Shown here piece after piece: positions 12,282-40,332 of a stretch of DNA of 64,000 nucleotides (position 1 is its first letter; each line of letters begins with the position of its first letter). Origin of the DNA: a virus; the IMG/VR virus record IMGVR_UViG_3300042904_000107, positions 1 to 64,000 of that record. The stretch is one strand, 5' to 3'. The position numbers and the translations under genes were made by a program. The notes beneath the pieces were generated by a model. It saw only the letters and a program-made list of their open reading frames with translations, did no database searches and was not told the DNA's origin.

Positions 12282-13166
12282 CTATGTTCCGCGGACTTCT
12301 GAATCGAACGTGATTGAAAAGGTTGGTGGGGTTAGGTCGTCAGTATTGAAGCCGTTGATATCGTAGGACAACGTAATATGTGGTTTGTATGTATCAAAAT
12401 CCGGTTGAGATCCCATTTCGCGAGCTTTTGTCCACTGCTCATTAGCATCCGCGTGTTCGAATCTCAGAACGAATGCGCTTCCAAAAATATCGAAATGGTA
12501 TGGAGGTTCAACAGTTGTTCCGTATGGAAGTAATTCGTAGTCTGGTAATTCGGATGCCTTACTGTAGACCACGGTGCAATGAAGCTTTTCACGAAGAACA
12601 GGATTTGGAATCTTATTCTCTTCCATCCATTTGACAAGCTTCTCAGAGGAATGCTTACTGACCGGAAGGTACATGTAAGCTTTTTCTTTCTCACCTTGGG
12701 CAGCTTCAAGCAATTTGATGGCCAATACTTCGATTAATTCCTCGAATGTATCCAGCATCTTCACACCGTGGATCTCACACGTCACACGAACATTGGTGCG
12801 GCGCCAATACCCATCAGGGCAACAAACCAACGCACGCTCAGGAGCGCGTTCAAGATGTTGACCTAGTTCCAGCAATGTGATTGGAGACTTAGTGTTTGGA
12901 TCGAAATAGAAGATGGCGAGATCTGAATGTCGGAGTGAATTTAACTCCCATTTGATCTGCTCGATTAATTCTGGATGGTCGTCACCCCAAGTTGGATCCC
13001 AATCCTGGCGACGTGGGTTGAGGAATGTAATATGTGGAACTTCTTTGAAGATATTTGTAATCTTATCTTGCCACTTGTCTGCTTTGCCTTGCTCGATTGA
13101 GCCGGCGAGAAAAATGGTCAAGTCTTCAGTTTCAACTGGAAGTGGAGCGTAGATTACGTTAGACAT
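12282..13166 (-). CDS. fusion: nucleoside 2-deoxyribosyltransferase-like domain + Acb1/gp57B-like 2H phosphoesterase
   Basis: N-term IFLAGSIE..WQ..NPRR..QI.WE..SPITLLELG; C-term IPNPV.REKLHCTVVYS ... DFD.YKPHITLSY. Confidence 0.85.
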   Translation of the reverse strand: MSNVIYAPLPVETEDLTIFLAGSIEQGKADKWQDKITNIFKEVPHITFLNPRRQDWDPTWGDDHPELIEQIKWELNSLRHSDLAIFYFDPNTKSPITLLELGQHLERAPERALVCCPDGYWRRTNVRVTCEIHGVKMLDTFEELIEVLAIKLLEAAQGEKEKAYMYLPVSKHSSEKLVKWMEENKIPNPVLREKLHCTVVYSKASELPDYELLPYGTTVEPPYHFDIFGSAFVLRFEHADANEQWTKAREMGSQPDFDTYKPHITLSYDINGFNTDDLTPPTFSITFDSEVRGT

Positions 13167-19899: not shown

Positions 19900-20553
19900 G
19901 GCCTAAAATTACTTACCGAGTGGACACCATTTAGGAGTCTCACACTCTTTTCGTTTGTTGTACGGCCGGCAGGCGACCGTAACGTTTCGCTTTGCTAGAC
20001 GGCACATCACCTTCTGGTCATCGTCACAGAACCAATCATGTGGATCCGGATCCGGAAGTACCTCGTGGTGTGGGCAGTCCATGCAATTGTCAATTTGAAT
20101 CAGTGGCATTGTTTGTCCTCACAATGAGCATGCCGCAAATAACTCCAGCGACAAATGTGATGGTAGCAATTACAAGTGTGGTAAGCATCCTAATCAGCCT
20201 GGTGGCTAGTCCGGCTCACGCGGGACTAGCCTAAAGGAGGTGGCGCACTTGCTCAAGGTACGCGCTTTTGGTGGCCAGGCGTCCCCACCAGAATTGTTTC
20301 AGGGCTGTTCAGTAACATAACCAGAGTTTCGAACCTCTCCTATGCTTTTCATGGCACCCGATGCTGAACAAGCTACCAACGAGCGTTCCGCGGACAACTT
20401 AATTCGTTTTCTTCGGATTGTAGATGACCAGTTCACTGAGCGGAGACAAACTAACTCCATTATCCGTTGATCCCACAACTGAATACATCTTGGGATCAAA
20501 TCCTAATTTCGAGAGTAATTCTTCAATGGTTATGGTTATTGTCATAGCGATTC

Positions 20554-20630
20554 TGGAGCCGGTGGAGGCATTCGAAACCTCGCCCTGGGCTTTACAAGAG
20601 CCCCGCTCTGGCCACCTGAGCTACACCGGC
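20554..20630 (-). tRNA. tRNA-Thr(TGT)
   Basis: GGGCT-CTTGTAA-AGCCC, CCA. Confidence 0.92.
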
Positions 20631-21050
20631 TTAAAAACTTTTACCTGCAAGGAAACGTTGTCGTCTCTTATATCGACCATTTCCTTTATTTAGAGCACGA
20701 AACGTAGCCGTCAAACTATGACAGTTCGGACAAATAAGAGTCAAGTTCTCTTCCTGATTGTTATCCGAATTACCATCAATATGTTCCACTTCAAGTGGTA
20801 TCAATCCCGAATGAGGATTAACTTCACACCATCCACACCGACTACATTTACTACCAAACTTTTCAAACAAATACGCTCGAATCTGCCTCGAATACTTCGT
20901 AATCTTACCAGACTTCCAACGACTAATAAACGATGCACGTTGATAAGCACCCTGGCATTTATTACTGCAATACTTCGTTGCTTTTCGGTGTATTTGATCT
21001 CCACAATTCAAACAATATTTGGGAGATCGTTCTTTCTTCTGTCGCGGCAC
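20631..21050 (-). CDS. HNH endonuclease
   Basis: CSRCG, LEVEHIDG..N..NL.LICPNCH; abuts tRNA-Thr. Confidence 0.88.
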   Translation of the reverse strand: MPRQKKERSPKYCLNCGDQIHRKATKYCSNKCQGAYQRASFISRWKSGKITKYSRQIRAYLFEKFGSKCSRCGWCEVNPHSGLIPLEVEHIDGNSDNNQEENLTLICPNCHSLTATFRALNKGNGRYKRRQRFLAGKSF

Positions 21051-21172
21051 AGAATTATCTATGCCGTCAAACCTCCGGTGCGGCCTTGGTATTAGACTGA
21101 TTTATAATGACCGCACGTTATAAAAACTTAGTTCCCTTGTAGGCGTGGACAGACGCCTCGTTAATCATTTAG

Positions 21173-21330
21173 TGCTGAGGCTGGGAGGAATCGAACCTAC
21201 CATTTCATTCAGCAGGCAGCCTCTAGAAAGCTACAGGGGAGTCACCCCCATGTCCACCGAATGGGTGCTGGATACCAGACCACCACTCACTTTAAAGTGA
21301 GCCGTTTTAACCAATAAACGTACAACCCCA
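21173..21330 (-). ncRNA. tRNA-like RNA with 8-bp acceptor and ~85-nt structured variable region
   Basis: TGGGGTTG/CAGCCTCA acceptor, D arm CGTTT/AAACG, CTCAC-TTTAAA-GTGAG, T loop TTCGATT. Confidence 0.7.
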
Positions 21331-21401
21331 CAAAACTGTGGACCCCTAAATCTCTAGGAACTTACAACCAAGGATACAACTTTTGCATGATTTACTCCGC
21401 G

Positions 21402-21568
21402 TGTGGTGTGCTATTACGCCAAAGAATCCACGGCCGAGTTTCCCAACCCAACTATCATCCGCAAAGTTCTCGGCAAAGACTCGATGATAGCCCCGACAAA
21501 GTTGCCGGCTCGGGCGGTAACGCAATTCACTCTTTAAATGATGGCTGCCTCTAAGCCAACATTCCACA
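21402..21568 (-). ncRNA. 23S rRNA H43-H44 (uL11-binding domain) mimic with insertion
   Basis: ATGTTGGCTTAGAGGCAGCCATCATTTAAAGAGT...GCGTAATAGCACAC closed by TGTGG/CCACA. Confidence 0.8.
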
Positions 21569-21849
21569 TATAAACAACTCCGAAGGGCGCTTTCGCACCC
21601 TGAGAACTTCTTTGCAACCGCTCATTCGCGAAATTAAGCAATTGCCTCGCAGCCAAGGGATCAACTTGACGCGGAATTAAATTTGTGAACAACCATTTTC
21701 GGTGGCGCCTTACCGTCTGCTTCGCTCGTTATGTCACGTTTCCTGTGGACTTAATTGTCTCACTATCTCGTGCCGTGACTACCGACTGTCTACGACTTTG
21801 GACGTCTCGGTCGGCGGCTATCCAGAACAACTACCATAATTCTATTATC

Positions 21850-21919
21850 TTGACACATCGGATTTGCACCGATGACTCCCGGTTTAAATTCAGGCACTTT
21901 CCTACTAAGCTAGTGTCAT
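21850..21919 (-). ncRNA. tRNA-like RNA with TTA anticodon, no encoded CCA
   Basis: TGACAC/GTGTCA acceptor, D arm GCTT/AAGT, loop AT-TTA-AA, ATCGG-TGCAAAT-CCGAT. Confidence 0.6.
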
Positions 21920-22035
21920 ACAAATTACGGTATTATACTTCTATCATATTCTCAAGGTACTTTTAATTAATTTTATTTTAATGTATCATTTGGATTTACC
22001 AAATAATCTTAACTGCTCTTGTCTCAACTATTATT

Positions 22036-22064
22036 AGTCTAACATGGTTATAATGGCCTGTCAA
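22036..22064 (-). promoter_or_regulatory. sigma70-type promoter upstream of the ncRNA cluster
   Basis: TTGACA-17-TAGACT with TG. Confidence 0.7.
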
Positions 22065-22090
22065 TATAGGCCATTATATTGTACTACAGG

Positions 22091-22165
22091 TGGCGGGACA
22101 TGGGGGAATTGAACCCCCGTCGCCTGGTAGACAGCCAAGCATCTTAGCCTCTAGAAGAATGTCCC
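22091..22165 (-). tRNA. tRNA-Asp(GTC)
   Basis: loop CT-GTC-TA, G73, CCA. Confidence 0.88.
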
Positions 22166-22376
22166 CAAACTTTATTCCGTTACTTCAAACGCCGCAGTCG
22201 GAAAGATTTGCTCAATCTCGATAACGGTTTCAGGTCCGGTCAACCCAGTAATGAACTTCGCATACAAGTTAAATCCGGGAACATGACCTTTGAGCCAGTA
22301 ACGTACTCTCCTAAAGCATCCGTTCTGATAAACAACTTGGTGACCCACAACAGGGAAACCATATATTTCTTTTCGG

Positions 22377-25022: not shown

Positions 25023-26498
25023 TCAAGCTTCGCGAACGTTTTCAGCATCCGTTTCAAATACACGGATGTAATCGAAAATGCGCTCTGACCAGCCGTCGAT
25101 GTGGTCCCAGCCGTTCTTATAGCTGATTCCGTTCTTCTCATTGCTCACGTTCACCACGTAGTTGAACTTTCCAAGACGCGGTGCAAGAGCAGGATTTGCT
25201 TTTGTGTCGCAATCCTGTTCATCAGTGAAGACGATAACGCGGTCGAATTCCTGGTGTTTCTGTGTCTTGATGTACTCCATACACTGAACCAGGAAGATAC
25301 CGCCGCCACCGATACCGAACTCATGTGATGCATTATGTATCTTCTCCGCTAATGCAAGTCCGTTCAGGTGGTCAGGAACCAATGCTGTCGCGTGTTTACG
25401 GCTAGCATCGCTGCCTGCCGTAACGTATACCACAGACTCTTCACACAAGTTACGCGCCAACAACGCCAGACCGGCTGCTCCGTCGAGACGCGATACTTCC
25501 GACTTACTTGACACGTTTCCGTAGTTCATGCTGCCCGATGTATCAACTACCAACAATGTTCTACCTGGTAGCTTATCCATACCATCAATAGCCTTCAGCA
25601 TGGCAATCTCAATTGACTTCGATAGACGCGGTGCATACTTCGCAGCCGTCATGAAGTTGAACGGTAGTGCCACTCCTACACCCTTCTCAAGGCGCTCGCG
25701 GATCAACTTCTCGTCCACACCAGCAGATAACATATTGCGAAGGTTCTTCAACAAAGCGAATCCGCCTAGTTTATTCTCGCGGATCAAACGCTCCCAAGTC
25801 TCTTTCTTGTTAGCGCCGGACGATAATGCAACTTCCCAGGTGTCTGGTGTCTTAAGTGTATTGTCCACAAGCTTCTTGAACAAGAGCTCCTGTTCACGGT
25901 CCTGCGGCTTCGCATGTGATAAGAACAACACGTCCCGGAGCTTAATGTCATTATCGCGGTTCCACTTTGCAAGCTGGTATTCATCAAACTTCGTGAACGC
26001 CTTTGCCAGGCCACGCTTGACCGAAGCTGATAATGGCTGCTTCTTATCTTTCCAGTACATGGCAAGGAACTCTGCTAATTCATCAGGGCGCTTGATTAGG
26101 CTGGCAACCCCAACCTCGACAACCGTGCCCACATTTACATCATTCCACTTGTACGGAAAACCAGTCTTCGCCAAGTTACCCTGGGTGTACTTTGCCAACT
26201 CGCGAATCACGTAAAGTGGCGCATGGCGCAACTTCATGAAATCTTTCGCTTCTAGAGCGAGATCCAACACGTCATTCGGATGCACGTTCGGGATGATATC
26301 CGAAATGCGCTTTGCAACTGAGTTACCGCCTTCGTAGAAGGAGTTCTCCCATAGAAGCGTGGTCATCAGCGAACGCTGGAGTTGCTTCTTAGCGTTGACT
26401 GTTTGCGCTTTCGCTCCACCAGCCGTAAAGACCTGAGTTTTCTTTGGTGCAACCTTCTTTACCACCTTCACGGTGGATTTCTTATTCACTTTCGCCAT
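25023..26498 (-). CDS. Ro60/Rsr-like TROVE + vWA RNA-binding protein
   Basis: LRHAP, RPDELAEFLA.Y, FDEYQLAKW.R, LRDVLFLSHAKP, PDTWEV.LS, MIDAS DTSGSM, FTDEQ. Confidence 0.93.
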   Translation of the reverse strand: MAKVNKKSTVKVVKKVAPKKTQVFTAGGAKAQTVNAKKQLQRSLMTTLLWENSFYEGGNSVAKRISDIIPNVHPNDVLDLALEAKDFMKLRHAPLYVIRELAKYTQGNLAKTGFPYKWNDVNVGTVVEVGVASLIKRPDELAEFLAMYWKDKKQPLSASVKRGLAKAFTKFDEYQLAKWNRDNDIKLRDVLFLSHAKPQDREQELLFKKLVDNTLKTPDTWEVALSSGANKKETWERLIRENKLGGFALLKNLRNMLSAGVDEKLIRERLEKGVGVALPFNFMTAAKYAPRLSKSIEIAMLKAIDGMDKLPGRTLLVVDTSGSMNYGNVSSKSEVSRLDGAAGLALLARNLCEESVVYVTAGSDASRKHATALVPDHLNGLALAEKIHNASHEFGIGGGGIFLVQCMEYIKTQKHQEFDRVIVFTDEQDCDTKANPALAPRLGKFNYVVNVSNEKNGISYKNGWDHIDGWSERIFDYIRVFETDAENVREA

Positions 26499-29774: not shown

Positions 29775-30542
29775 TCAGTCATTTTCGTAGTATCCGTAGG
29801 TGTTTAGGATATACATACAAAGATCGTTCACAAAGTCCAGATCCGGTTTCTCGGGTAGGTCGGTCAGCTTTTCACAAGATTGGGCATACTCGATCTCACT
29901 TTTCGTCAGCCTGATCCAATGTTCTAAGGAGAACCCACCATTTCTAATAGACAGAAGTAAATCGCGGTCACGTTCCCGATAGACATTCAATTCTCCCGTG
30001 AGAAAGAACTCCTGTGCCATATGTAGGATGCGGATCGTATGCGCCGCAAACTTCACATCATATCCGTATTTTGCAACCAACTCTTTACGTTTCGTTCCGA
30101 GTTTACCAGTATTGCAATTGATAACCGAATTCATCTGACTGTTTGCGTATCCAATGAGTGTTTTTCCGGCGCGCTTGGATTCGAATGACTTTCTATGTCG
30201 AATCAACAGGTCACCGGCCTTCTCTCTCAACGCATAATCAGAACCTCGCAAATAAAGCAGCGGAATCACGTTTGGGTTATACGAGAGCATTAGACGTAAG
30301 AACTTCTTTAACTCATATGCGGTTAACTCTGCATTGAGTGTTTCCTTACGCTCTATTTTCAGCGTACCGTCGTTCTCCCAATTTCGGAGACCGATGTAGT
30401 GCGACATCGGGGCAAGCGCAACTCCCATCCAGTCATCGTCACTGTCAGGAGTATCTGTGCCATATGATTTTGAGCCTACTTGGCCCACAAGTATGTACTT
30501 GCCAACTCTTTGGTCAAGTGCGAACGGTGTAAGATCTGCCAT
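29775..30542 (-). CDS. YcgL/RlaP-like Pol-beta nucleotidyltransferase
   Basis: VGSKSYGT.TPDSD.D, YEL.KF..L..NPN, YDVK.A.H.IR. Confidence 0.85.
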   Translation of the reverse strand: MADLTPFALDQRVGKYILVGQVGSKSYGTDTPDSDDDWMGVALAPMSHYIGLRNWENDGTLKIERKETLNAELTAYELKKFLRLMLSYNPNVIPLLYLRGSDYALREKAGDLLIRHRKSFESKRAGKTLIGYANSQMNSVINCNTGKLGTKRKELVAKYGYDVKFAAHTIRILHMAQEFFLTGELNVYRERDRDLLLSIRNGGFSLEHWIRLTKSEIEYAQSCEKLTDLPEKPDLDFVNDLCMYILNTYGYYEND

Positions 30543-35374: not shown

Positions 35375-36352
35375 TCACTTCTTTTTCTTACCTTCAAGGT
35401 AATCGATGGACACGGCCTTGAGAATCAACCGACCGTGCAGGCGGTCACTGAAGCGCTCGATTACCGGCTTGATGACGACACCTTCTCGGATATGCGCTGC
35501 GCCAGGTAACGTGCTTTCCCCGTTCATCAATTTCTCAACCACTTCGTGACTGTACGGGCCACGATATAGGACAGGCACCAGAAAATCAGACTTGGCACCA
35601 CCAAGGGCGTCGTCGTAGTTAAGGAAACGACCGTCAGCATAAACATCAAAGGCCCTAAAGCCATAAGGAACCTTCTGGTTGAGTCCGTAGTTATATCCTT
35701 TTTGAACAGCACCGAAAATCTCCCCATATAGAATCACATTCGGATTGAGTTGGCAGAACACTTTGATCCACGGCACCAGATCGAGAATGCGCCAGAAAAC
35801 GTTGTCGCCTTCTTTGACCCAGTGATTACGGCTACCGGCGTACATCTTTCCGTCTTGATAGGTGAAGCGGCTGTTCATTCCGTGAATCTTCTCGGTAATG
35901 ACGACCTCTTCTCCTTCTTGAAATACGTTGCGGTATTTCTGCCAGGACTCGATATCGTAAATCACGCCGCGCATTGGAGGCGGTGACTCGTGATTACCCA
36001 TTGCGGCATTCACCACACTGGACAGTTCAGGCTCGTAGTGTACGATACCGAGTTTCTCGGCTACATCATCACCGATCTCAGCGCCTTCTGGTGCCGGAAC
36101 CAGCATACCGTAACTCTCAATACCGCGGAGCCTCTTCGCCTTGATTTTGACCTTACCTTCTAAGAAGGCGAACTGTTCGGTGTCGGGAACGACCGAGTCA
36201 GGCGGAATGTATGCTCCTCGATCTTTGCCTTCCCAATCAGCGGTACGGACGCAAACGGTGTAACCATCAAACACCTTAACAACCGAAAGGCTGTCAGCAT
36301 TGGGATGCTTCTCCAGGCTCACTGGGACCACTTCTACTCTGAATGTTGCCAT
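35375..36352 (-). CDS. RNA ligase, DRB0094 family (N-terminal OB-fold + ligase domain)
   Basis: HPNADSL, YIPPDSVVP, LRG..S.G, TEKIHG.N, LYGEIFG, REGVV.KP. Confidence 0.9.
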   Translation of the reverse strand: MATFRVEVVPVSLEKHPNADSLSVVKVFDGYTVCVRTADWEGKDRGAYIPPDSVVPDTEQFAFLEGKVKIKAKRLRGIESYGMLVPAPEGAEIGDDVAEKLGIVHYEPELSSVVNAAMGNHESPPPMRGVIYDIESWQKYRNVFQEGEEVVITEKIHGMNSRFTYQDGKMYAGSRNHWVKEGDNVFWRILDLVPWIKVFCQLNPNVILYGEIFGAVQKGYNYGLNQKVPYGFRAFDVYADGRFLNYDDALGGAKSDFLVPVLYRGPYSHEVVEKLMNGESTLPGAAHIREGVVIKPVIERFSDRLHGRLILKAVSIDYLEGKKKK

Positions 36353-36737
36353 TGGTATTCCTCCAGTCCAGATAAGCGCATTCGCACTTATTGGAACAAA
36401 ATACAGGTTCTGAAGGAAGACCGCACCAAGCACAGAGTCCGGTGAACCGGGTCACTTCAAGTATTAAACTCATCCTTAGGCTCGGAGCCTTATTGGATTC
36501 CGAGAACCCATTCGAGGACGCTAATTTTGGTTTTCAGTTCCAATATATGGTCTCGGTCGGCCAAATAGTTACTGTGTGCATACAGCCTCTTTGCTAGTTC
36601 CAAGTCAAATCGACAGGTTTCGAGGCGGCGTTGAATTCTCTCTTCTGTTTTCATTCCTCTGTCCTTACGACAAGCTCAAAATCGGTGACGTCCTCGGCTT
36701 GGTTGCTTTAAATTCACTTGCAATGGGCTACACAGTT

Positions 36738-37732: not shown

Positions 37733-39247
37733 TCATACGTCTCTAGACCATGAGGCGCCGACCACTCGCTTTCCGTAATCGGTTGTCCCAACTCTTTCTC
37801 GGATGTAAGTCAGACTGTACTCGTTGGTCAACACCCCGTCCAGGAAAACAGTGACGAGGTGGTCGCCAAAATGATTGATGAACGGATCGATGAGCGACGA
37901 CACAGTGTGGAACTTCTTGTCATTGCCGTTCTGAAAAACGACTTTGTGGACACCGCGCTTACTGCCCTTACCCTTATCACCGACTGGGTCTTTGTACACA
38001 TCGTACCAGACGCCGTTGATTCGGATCGCGGAGCACTTGAAGGCGAACTTCAACGTGTCGCGGTCGACGCCTTGCAGCAACTTACCACCCATCCCGAAAC
38101 AAGCCATGTTGTCGATTGACCAACCAGCATCAGTGATTGCCCGACACAGAGCGCGGATGGTGTGAATGTTCATACCATCACCCTGAAGGAGCCGAACGAA
38201 CTGCGGTAGCACTTTGTAGCCCTTGCGGTTCGTCTCATAGCCGAAGCGATCACCGAGGATTTCAAGCAACTTCAAGATGGTTGGGATGATTTCACCGGAG
38301 TCGGGGCGAACGACAACCGTACCATTTCGCGATGCGACTTCCGCTTTCAATTCGCGTCCGAAGATTTCGCTACAGGCATTGAAAATGTCGTAGCTGTCCG
38401 AGACAATCGAAACGATGCCCGTCGGATAGCTTTGGAGCATGTTCGCGTAGGCTTGTGCCTCTCTGTCGCGACCCCATGAGGTGATTGTCGAGTGCTCGGC
38501 TGCCGGCACACTGAAACCAGGCATCGAATCGGGACGGTAATACTTCAGAGCGAGAGACAATCCGACCATTGTGTCGGTACCTCTGAAATTTACCATATGT
38601 GCTGCGGCACCGATTGCGGCAGATTCACGAGACGTTGAGCCGCGTGAACCGAAGTCTTGAAGCATGAAGACCAGTTTGCCTTCGAGAGTTTCGGGATCTC
38701 CGCTAAGTTCGAGGTACTCGCGAATGATATCCTTGATCTCAGCGCTCAATGACGCCACGGTGATTGGATACCACAAGCGCATAAGCATAGTCTCAACATA
38801 GTTGACTAGCCAGTAGCACTTCGGATCCGTATTCACTACCGTGACCAATGCATTGTGTGTTCCGATTCGCGTGCCTTCCGGAATCGCCTTGATGAGCAAC
38901 GGAAGGTGCCCACCGTGATGGTCGACAATGTAGCGCCAGCCTTCTTCGTTGAAGTTTCGCGGATCTCCGCCCATGTGCTCCACGATCATGAGTTTTGCCA
39001 CGTCGATCATTTCGTGGGTCACGACCGGTCCGGTCAGATACTTCTTGATGATGTACTGGAGTCCAAACATCACCGTCTTATCGAACTGACCGCCGCGCGA
39101 TTCGAGGTAGCTGTAGACGTATTCGGTGTCCGGAGGATATTGCATCCAGTGGCTCGTTTTGTACGAGTCGCTGTCCAGGATCACGTTGAATAGGAGATCG
39201 TCTGGAAGATTCTCTAATTGTTGAAGACTTGTTAATGGGAGCGTCAT
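37733..39247 (-). CDS. nadV: nicotinamide phosphoribosyltransferase
   Basis: DSYKTSH, DFGSRG, GTDT, PAAEHS, SIVSDSYD, RPDSG, QGDG. Confidence 0.95.
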   Translation of the reverse strand: MTLPLTSLQQLENLPDDLLFNVILDSDSYKTSHWMQYPPDTEYVYSYLESRGGQFDKTVMFGLQYIIKKYLTGPVVTHEMIDVAKLMIVEHMGGDPRNFNEEGWRYIVDHHGGHLPLLIKAIPEGTRIGTHNALVTVVNTDPKCYWLVNYVETMLMRLWYPITVASLSAEIKDIIREYLELSGDPETLEGKLVFMLQDFGSRGSTSRESAAIGAAAHMVNFRGTDTMVGLSLALKYYRPDSMPGFSVPAAEHSTITSWGRDREAQAYANMLQSYPTGIVSIVSDSYDIFNACSEIFGRELKAEVASRNGTVVVRPDSGEIIPTILKLLEILGDRFGYETNRKGYKVLPQFVRLLQGDGMNIHTIRALCRAITDAGWSIDNMACFGMGGKLLQGVDRDTLKFAFKCSAIRINGVWYDVYKDPVGDKGKGSKRGVHKVVFQNGNDKKFHTVSSLIDPFINHFGDHLVTVFLDGVLTNEYSLTYIRERVGTTDYGKRVVGASWSRDV

Positions 39248-40332
39248 AATTTATCCGACCAGGTCCCTTTATCCAGTCCTTCTAGGGACATTTTTGTGTC
39301 TGACCAGTTTACGTTTTCAGCCGGAACAGGTCCCGCATAGACCTTCTTTCCGTCTACATGGTTGAAAGAGAACTTACGGACATCGGTGTACTCGGAAGTC
39401 ACTTCACCGTGATTCTCATCGCCGCGAAGGCTGTACTTACGGAGTAATGCGTCAAGCAGCACGTGATGCTCCTTCACGATCATTGCTTCCTCAAGCAGCA
39501 CCATATCGAACCACTTGACTTCATCCACGTCGTCGCCGGCTCTGACGGGTCCGCTCAGATAGTGACCAACATAGAAGATGGTGTAAGCCCCGTCTTTTGT
39601 GCCGTTATATCGCCAGTCATCGATGGGAGTGTCATCAACATACTCCATTTCACCGATGGTGCAACCGGCTTCTTCGGTCACTTCACGCACACCGGCGTGC
39701 TTCGCTTTCTCTCCAGGGTTCACGTGTCCCCCGAAAAAGCGCCACTGACCTTCGGGATCTTCTTTCTTTCGGCCGAGTAGAACTCGCGCGGCTTTTCTGA
39801 AATCGACGACCGCGACGTCCACGCAGAGAGCATGTGATGGATATTTGTTTGCCGTGGCATAGATGACACCTCGACGGAAATCTTCCGATGGCCGTACGGT
39901 GTGATATGCCTGTTTGCGCGCCAAAGTGGCGTTGATTCCGTGAATCTCGTCCAATTCGGCGGTCTGAAACCGACCTGTGTAGTGTGTGATGAAGGAATCG
40001 CGGCTGCCGTAGAGCACCACTTTTTCGTGTGGATGTAACAAACGAATCATTCGGTCGAGATTGTGGGACCAAAGATCGTCGCTCCGAACGTCATTGATTG
40101 CCAACACTTCAACACCAGGGTAGGTGTCTTGTAACATCCGATAGCGCGTGGCGAAATCAAGCGGATTCTTGACAGTCGGAACAACATTCGCAACACCGAG
40201 CACGATGGCGAACTTGTTATGTCTTGCCGCGACCGAATCAATCAATTCGCGGTGTCCTTCTGTCAGATAGGGTGTCTGGAATCTGGCAACAATAACACCT
40301 AAGTCGCCCTCCGGGCCTCTCAAATTGAGCAT
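39244..40332 (-). CDS. bifunctional NMN adenylyltransferase / Nudix ADP-ribose pyrophosphatase (NadM-Nudix/NatV-like)
   Basis: VARFQ...GH, KNPL, Nudix GGHV.PGE....A..REV.EEAG, AGDD. Confidence 0.9.
   Translation of the reverse strand: MLNLRGPEGDLGVIVARFQTPYLTEGHRELIDSVAARHNKFAIVLGVANVVPTVKNPLDFATRYRMLQDTYPGVEVLAINDVRSDDLWSHNLDRMIRLLHPHEKVVLYGSRDSFITHYTGRFQTAELDEIHGINATLARKQAYHTVRPSEDFRRGVIYATANKYPSHALCVDVAVVDFRKAARVLLGRKKEDPEGQWRFFGGHVNPGEKAKHAGVREVTEEAGCTIGEMEYVDDTPIDDWRYNGTKDGAYTIFYVGHYLSGPVRAGDDVDEVKWFDMVLLEEAMIVKEHHVLLDALLRKYSLRGDENHGEVTSEYTDVRKFSFNHVDGKKVYAGPVPAENVNWSDTKMSLEGLDKGTWSDKL

Follow-up and report, generated by a model that had tools for sequence, protein, structure and literature searches.

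A predicted phage RNA family that reproduces the uL11-binding centre of 23S rRNA in split, self-closed form

The ribosomal centre and its known imitations

Few functional sites of the ribosome are as conserved as the centre formed by uL11 and helices H43 and H44 of 23S rRNA. It is where EF-G, EF-Tu, IF2 and the release factors dock, and where thiopeptide antibiotics and at least one toxin attack. The 58-nt fragment that spans nucleotides 1051-1108 folds and binds uL11 by itself. Van Dyke, Xu and Murgola reportedly found in 2002 that 23S fragments expressed from a plasmid limit uL11 in E. coli and alter stop-codon-specific termination. Those fragments were artificial and insert-free, with no known natural counterpart, and they would provide a laboratory precedent for the titration of uL11 in vivo by a free rRNA domain.

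Natural RNAs that imitate part of an rRNA are best represented by the leaders of ribosomal-protein operons, such as the L10 leader (RF00557), which reproduce the rRNA site of a protein off the ribosome. These leaders are cis-acting 5’ UTRs of the genes that they control, and their resemblance to rRNA is loose. T4 species 1 and 2 RNAs, bacterial Y RNAs with tRNA-like modules, and ToxI-like pseudo-antitoxins are small, stable, tRNA-associated or mimicking RNAs (PMC4201824, PMC3475682); none of them is known to copy a functional centre of rRNA.

The phage RNA that we describe here does resemble such a centre. It has in common with the GTPase-associated centre of 23S rRNA (E. coli 1051-1108, the minimal uL11/thiostrepton fragment) the helices, the tertiary pair 1082:1086 and the bulged A1088, as well as the non-canonical juxtapositions 1056-A1103 and U1060-U1078 and the placement of G1071/C1072 opposite G1091-C1100/C1092-G1099. 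Unlike the ribosomal centre, the phage RNA is free-standing, is encoded by phages within tRNA arrays, and is closed by a helix of its own whose sequence is arbitrary. An obligatory insert of 27-425 nt, followed by UUUR, separates 1090 from 1091; A1101 pairs with U1090, where rRNA has U1101; and A1067, A1095, 1096 and 1097 are not invariant. It differs from the ribosomal-protein leaders in being nearly identical to rRNA and placed like a tRNA, with no conserved downstream gene and no uL11 gene.

A split copy in the tRNA block of a soil phage

The element lies in a 64-kb window, the whole stretch of DNA analyzed here, which is part of a 97-kb viral record with an estimated completeness of 53%. 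The gene content is that of a T4-like soil phage, with a family B DNA polymerase, a gp44-type clamp loader, a UvsX-like RecA, a DnaB-like helicase and a gp46-like SMC protein. The window holds 30 tRNA genes, all on the minus strand, which is also the strand of the element. Interleaved with them are genes for Acb1 fused to a nucleoside 2-deoxyribosyltransferase-like domain, for an RlaP nucleotidyltransferase, for an RNA ligase, and for NAMPT followed by Nudix; the last two are a NAD-salvage pair. E. coli 23S numbering was anchored by the fetched E. coli sequence (GGAUGUUGGC... at position 1055) and places U1051 at 21568, U1090 at 21529, G1091 at 21419 and A1108 at 21402. The features are as follows.

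21568-21402, minus strand: split copy of the 23S uL11-binding centre, RNA of ~170 nt
21564-21568, minus strand: 5’ strand of the closing helix, UGUGG, equivalent to 23S 1051-1055 (top of H42); pairs with 21402-21406
21538-21563, minus strand: A1056 and the H43 copy (1057-1081); A1067 equivalent at 21552, G in place of A at 1070 (21549)
21529-21537, minus strand: junction 1082-1090, UUAAAGAGU, ending in AAAGAGU; tertiary pair U1082:A1086, bulged A1088 at 21531
21424-21528, minus strand: variable insert of 105 nt between U1090 and G1091; basal helix GAAUU/GGAUUC, three hairpins in the predicted fold
21420-21423, minus strand: UUUG linker, a family signature absent from rRNA
21407-21419, minus strand: H44 copy (1091-1103), GCGUAAUAGCACA; A1095 equivalent at 21415, family signature A1101 at 21409
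21402-21406, minus strand: 3’ strand of the closing helix, CCACA, equivalent to 1104-1108; pairs with UGUGG
21585-21600, minus strand: GC-rich hairpin, GAAA loop; lies 16 nt upstream of the RNA
22091-22165 and 20554-20630, minus strand: tRNA genes flanking the element
21849-21919, minus strand: tRNA found by cmscan only (42.8 bits) and missed by ARAGORN; anticodon loop AUUUAAA, giving anticodon UUA; A1-A72 mismatch
25023-26498, minus strand: gene for a Ro60-like (TROVE domain) protein, within the tRNA block
12282-13166, 29775-30542, 35375-36433 and 37733-40332, minus strand: counter-defence and RNA-repair genes among the tRNAs

All of the minus-strand letters on which the original prediction was built occur exactly at 21568-21402, with the two halves in order and the equivalents of A1067 and A1095 kept. 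Resemblance to E. coli 23S rRNA extends to 35 of the 40 letters of 1051-1090, and to 24 of 26 positions in the H43 stretch 1056-1081, where the mismatches fall at 1056 and 1070. The element departs from rRNA at A1056, G1070, G1089/U1090 (as in Firmicutes) and A1101. The claimed match of both halves to rRNA stands except for the G at 1070 and the A at 1101. Between the halves lies, as described, a stretch that is not rRNA; its length, put at ~110 nt, is precisely 109 nt including the UUUG linker. The rRNA closing stem is indeed replaced by five perfect pairs (UGUGG/CCACA), and the insert does have a closing stem of its own, in which GAAUU/GGAUUC is extended by three further pairs beyond a one-base bulge. 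Read from 5’ to 3’, the element consists of the first strand of the closing helix, an H43 half with an AGAGU end, the base-paired insert, UUUR, GCGU-NNN-AGCAC with A1101, and the second strand of the closing helix.

An Rfam scan of the 64-kb window returned only tRNAs; it gave no rRNA match anywhere, in keeping with the earlier statement that no rRNA flanks the element, and the element itself was unmatched even at E 10. We rejected its assignment to the bacterial 23S rRNA gene (LSU_rRNA_bacteria), as it is not contiguous with other 23S sequence and its centre is interrupted by 109 nt.

No convincing promoter or terminator was found near the element in the window. The upstream hairpin at 21585-21600 fails to score as a terminator and has no promoter-like site nearby; it is possibly a processing or boundary element, although this is uncertain. 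A GGAG-ATG start for an 8-codon ORF follows the element. The ORFs that overlap the element are mechanical, and their conservation is impossible because the insert is variable.

Two further RNAs of the tRNA block deserve mention in their own right. With its UUA anticodon, the tRNA at 21849-21919 would read the stop codon UAA; TAA is a normal stop in this phage, where it ends 13 of 28 long ORFs, and TAA, TGA and TAG all serve as stops in the window. About 70 nt downstream of the element, at 21176-21329 on the minus strand, lies a tRNA-like RNA with D, anticodon and T arms and a variable arm of ~85 nt. It scores 26 bits, under the Rfam threshold, and could be a partner of the nearby Ro60-like protein.

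A family of phage RNAs with a conserved core and a common fold

Searches of uncultured viral contigs recovered at least 144 distinct homologs (duplicates removed), and the split architecture is present in all of them. An IMG/VR query that combined the H43 half with any continuation except that of rRNA gave 25 contigs, all with the same split; a query for the H44 half by itself and one for the H43 half under relaxed matching gave at least 120 contigs each. Among the 3’-half matches listed, 115 of 135 have a recognizable H43 half 23-365 nt upstream. Conversely, GCGU-NNN-AGCAC lies downstream in 123 of the 129 listed matches to the 5’ half alone, and uninterrupted rRNA in none. Seven more members come from cultured phages (Xanthomonas XaC1 and XacN1, Cronobacter GAP32, Aeromonas 4_4572, and Pseudomonas pf16, UNO-G1W1 and Milchi), and blastn gave further matches in Pectobacterium CBB, Serratia BF, Yersinia fHe-Yen9-03/04, several Erwinia pEa_SNUABM phages and others. 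The element is unannotated in the GenBank phages that carry it. A scan of bacterial assemblies with the 3’ motif yielded 14 true elements among 120 matches listed, most of the matches being due to chance; the 14 come from Clostridia, Bacteroidota, Actinomycetota and Proteobacteria bins, and the one context inspected is phage-like, with a tail fibre gene. The family ranges over soil, gut, freshwater and plant-pathogen phages and many host phyla.

When Rfam 15 was applied to the window at gathering thresholds, to 20600-22200 at permissive settings and to one minimal member, it returned only tRNAs and chance matches, and we did not find a description of such a phage RNA family in the searchable full-text literature. 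The suggestion that no phage RNA of this type had been described agrees with both sources: the element is a member of a large phage RNA family that is new to Rfam 15 and to the searchable literature.

Comparative analysis provides the evidence for a fold. A covariance model built from 29 other members, with the window left out, found the window element end to end (21397-21573, minus strand, model positions 1-146) as the sole match in 64 kb, with 86.1 bits and an E-value of 7e-22. Together with the IMG/VR and GenBank members, this bears out the expectation that homologs keep the split architecture. The same phage-only model scored the seven cultured-phage elements at 75-100 bits and the true 23S centres at 61 bits (Paenibacillus) and 56 bits (E. 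coli). That a model made from phage RNAs alone detects the real centres is a direct measure of mimicry. Single-sequence thermodynamic folding of the element gave z = -0.45 and missed H44.

The pairs of the predicted fold covary across the 144 members. The closing helix columns 1048-1055:1104-1111 are 74-100% paired, as opposed to about 40% after shuffling or sliding; all four Watson-Crick types occur there, and 12-84 sequences per pair are altered on both sides. Pair 1058:1080 is formed in every member (UA 63, GC 43, AU 27, CG 6), and the tertiary pair 1082:1086 in 97%, again with covariation (UA 81, CG 41, AU 18). U1090 and A1101 are paired in 144 of 144, as a U-G wobble in pf16 and UNO-G1W1. 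At the base of the insert only the first three to four pairs are kept as pairs (100, 97, 92 and 70%). Over all columns, the 16 pairs with the highest mutual information are exactly the predicted ones. In the 29 short members, 95% of the cells are paired, a level that none of 500 shuffles reached (72% shuffled, 33-54% slid), and both sides have changed in 15 of 22 pairs. Without a structure as input, RNAalifold arrived at the closing helix, H43 in both its parts, the insert base and H44. Nearly all of the 123 members for which only the 5’ half served as the query have GCGU-NNN-AGCAC, and where the H44 stem deviates, in two rare variants, the changes compensate each other (UCG..AGA and GUG..AAC). 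The earlier argument for a selected fold, as against a captured fragment, is strengthened by these 144 homologs, which keep the split with compensatory changes; on comparative evidence the element is a selected, self-closed copy of the uL11-binding centre. Position 1056 covaries weakly with 1082:1086 (G1056 with U:A and A1056 with C:G, mutual information 0.24), which may reflect a base triple or stacking constraint, or shared ancestry only.

Conservation is concentrated in the core. Across the 144 members, the following positions are 99-100% conserved: G1059, U1060, G1063, G1071, C1072, C1075, A1077 and C1079 in the H43 part; A1084, A1085, G1087, A1088, G1089 and U1090 in the junction; and G1091, C1092, G1093, U1094, A1098, G1099, C1100, A1101, C1102 and A1103 in the 3’ half, with A1101 present in 143 of 144. 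Pairs that neighbour these invariant nucleotides vary freely. Conservation is lower at A1067 (85%), A1095 (92%), G1068 (74%) and A1070 (85%), while 1096 alternates between A and G, 1097 among U, C and A, and 1061 can be any base. Since conserved motifs served to retrieve the members (with at most 7 mismatches in 29 and 3 in 14), ascertainment bias makes these percentages overestimates. The near-invariance of the core, next to the lesser conservation of A1067 and A1095, indicates that the architecture is kept more strictly than the factor-facing tips. This pattern favours a role of the fold, and hence uL11 binding, over exact mimicry of a factor or antibiotic site.

The insert is present in every member, the shortest being 27 nt and the median 140 nt (range 27-425; lengths include the 4-nt linker). 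The linker is UUUR in 138 of 144 members (UUUG in 115, UUUA in 23), and the 144-member family alignment contains no covarying partner column for it. Insert sequences fall into 95 clusters among the 144 members, and that of the window is a singleton. Compared with the E. coli 16S-23S-5S operon, the inserts gave nothing significant, only chance matches of 12-13 nt, and we rejected the idea that the insert is a second rRNA mimic. A subclass of 35 inserts (for example at loci L022, L024, L004 and L331) shares, in order, CGAAG near the 5’ end, AGUA/G, and a CACCCC-hairpin-GGUAAGG element. The small hairpin shows compensatory changes and has a GNRA-like or UAAC loop, and the GAA and AGUA parts resemble the bulged-G (loop E type) motif.

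The genomic setting is that of a tRNA rather than a leader. tRNAs lie within 1.5 kb of 65 of 99 elements, and in all 65 the nearby tRNAs are on the strand of the element. The upstream tRNA ends within 11 nt of the closing helix in 28 members, and the downstream tRNA starts within 18 nt of it in 28. The pf16 element sits between tRNA-Asn and tRNA-Pro, and that of UNO-G1W1 between tRNA-Trp and tRNA-Arg. No conserved protein neighbour was found, the largest cluster accounting for 7 of 142 loci, which argues for a trans-acting RNA rather than a leader. The 50 records with an element that were searched, among which 23 have a completeness of 90% or more, all lack a uL11 gene (PF00298); the same search was positive in 14 of 14 control genomes. 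A TROVE (Ro60) gene occurs in only 7 of 49 element-bearing records, so the Ro60 protein and the rRNA mimic are not linked. This low co-occurrence, together with the lack of any Y RNA match in Rfam, argues against the element being a Y RNA or YrlA.

As a side observation, a suppressor tRNA is found at 12 of 143 element loci, 11 of them with anticodon CUA (for example L005, L036 and L039); this is a raw count with no control set, from which we claim no enrichment. A link between the element and stop-codon recoding is an idea only.

A captured fragment of host rDNA, or a faulty assembly, has to be considered for any phage sequence so close to rRNA. The extent of identity to E. coli 23S rRNA over 1051-1090 is what a dead host fragment split by an insertion would show, and the assembly graph does break inside the shared letters. 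The breaks are confined to 30 bases, 21533-21562, which are identical to the real 23S genes of the community (depth 866). In two soil metagenomes, which come from different studies, a single unitig of depth 11 extends from 20500 to 21562 and so contains the insert along with both H43 and H44; a second, of depth 12, runs from 21533 onwards, and the closing helix joins letters of both. True rRNA contigs part from the window at exactly 21528, the first base of the insert, and continue as CGTAATAGCTCACTGGTC, an uninterrupted H44. The element is flanked by phage sequence and tRNAs, and the phage DNA was recovered from the soil metagenomes of both studies. The unitigs were inspected for the chimeric join with host rDNA that the original prediction had named as a danger, and a single phage-depth unitig that spans H43, insert and H44 excludes it. 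Against a dead fragment stand also the hundreds of phages with the same split, the family-specific A1101 and UUUG, and the compensatory changes. In a 23S comparison with only three host assemblies that have a 23S gene, moreover, phages of Proteobacteria have AGAGU where E. coli and one host assembly have AGAAA. The family evidence refutes the reading as a dead fragment or artefact, and we assign it a negligible probability.

Plain rRNA does occur in phage records. Paenibacillus phage Pd_22F (locus L002, MZ092003.1) contains, at about 82.5-85.5 kb, an ordinary, unannotated and uninterrupted stretch of 23S rRNA that is probably host DNA or an assembly contaminant, and several short ‘phage’ records (Staphylococcus, Listeria, Escherichia and Salmonella) are plain rRNA.

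Possible roles off the ribosome

The conserved core nucleotides and the fold lead us to infer that the RNA belongs to the uL11-binding class, and it probably imitates the ribosomal uL11 site off the ribosome. We envisage a stable RNA of ~170 nt that would be co-transcribed with the phage tRNA block and cut out by tRNA-processing enzymes, presumably RNase P and the enzymes that process 3’ ends. Its two ends, on the comparative evidence, fold into a copy of the GTPase-associated centre (the top of H42, H43 and H44), with the variable domain sprouting between U1090 and G1091. Because the rRNA fragment 1051-1108 binds uL11 alone and the core is kept in the phage RNA, the copy may bind host uL11 away from the ribosome, in line with the original prediction of a decoy. 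Judged from sequence comparison, we give an even chance to the proposal that this stand-alone RNA of the tRNA block, a self-closed copy of the centre, binds host uL11 off the ribosome and acts through decoy or competition.

The consequences of such binding are more speculative. The RNA might hold uL11, or whatever docks on the surface formed by uL11 and RNA, and thereby reduce the supply of uL11 to ribosomes or compete with the ribosomal site. Activation of RelA, and with it the stringent response, might be blunted, since uL11 is required for it (PMC13448080), and termination by RF1 and RF2 might be shifted. The benefit would fall to a phage that floods the cell with its own tRNAs. We advance only tentatively the fuller version, in which the replica, once excised from the tRNA transcript, would sequester either host uL11 or the uL11-dependent surfaces of RelA, the release factors or the GTPases, and would so turn off the stringent response and retune termination. 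Most uL11 sits on ribosomes, and effective titration would for that reason need a very abundant RNA. Simple uL11 binding also leaves the UUUG linker, A1101 and the obligatory insert unexplained, and a pure uL11 sponge would not need A1067 and A1095, which are still 85-92% conserved.

Alternatively, the RNA might be a decoy for a factor aimed at the ribosomal centre, be it a host abortive-infection or competitor toxin that modifies or cleaves H43/H44 or a thiopeptide that occupies the cleft between uL11 and the RNA, and might protect the ribosomes on which the phage relies. To our knowledge, no anti-phage system is directed at this ribosomal site. Toxins of the site do exist, as the Photorhabdus toxin Tre23 ADP-ribosylates H44 at 1095-1098 (PMC8661411), and thiopeptides contact A1067 and A1095 (PMC5960728), kept in 85% and 92% of members. 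The tRNA block of the window, moreover, harbours counter-defence and RNA-repair genes, namely those for Acb1, NAMPT and Nudix, RNA ligase, RlaP and the Ro60-like protein. On the other hand, 1096 and 1097, within the Tre23 target, vary freely, and the range of habitats and host phyla is wider than expected for a single toxin or antibiotic. We consider this protective role unlikely, although it deserves more weight than the alternatives that follow.

It is also conceivable that the rRNA-like core is a handle that recruits uL11 as a stabilizer or chaperone, while the variable insert performs a lineage-specific function within a small RNA-protein complex. Such a division of labour would account for an insert that is obligatory down to its shortest form and for the ordered module, with its compensatory hairpin changes, in the subclass of 35 members. 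Yet most inserts are unrelated to one another, that of the window to any other, and they vary in length from 27 to 425 nt; the core is the conserved part, and it is there that selection points. We therefore regard the handle as improbable. Least probable of the functional readings, and in our view very unlikely, is a cis-acting element, which could be an autoregulatory leader of the kind known from ribosomal-protein operons, or else a signal in the tRNA transcript for processing or spacing. The XaC1 element, between a terminator and the next gene on the same strand, and the GGAG-ATG start after the window element would suit a leader. This reading is opposed by the lack of a conserved downstream gene family and of a uL11 gene in these phages, by the many members with tRNAs on both sides, and by the absence of a match to any Rfam leader family.

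If the fuller version, with capture of uL11 and its effects on the stringent response and termination, is true, no natural RNA that mimics an rRNA domain in trans would have preceded this one, and viruses would have a new way of controlling the ribosome. A natural, widespread, virus-encoded copy of the centre off the ribosome would add a new class to the non-coding RNAs of phages and a new principle to host takeover or counter-defence. Members that are unannotated in cultured phages with tractable hosts (the Pseudomonas putida phage pf16, GAP32, XaC1 and XacN1) make the proposal testable at the bench now. Moreover, the family would amount to a natural experiment that separates the nucleotides of the centre needed for folding and protein binding from those needed for factor function.
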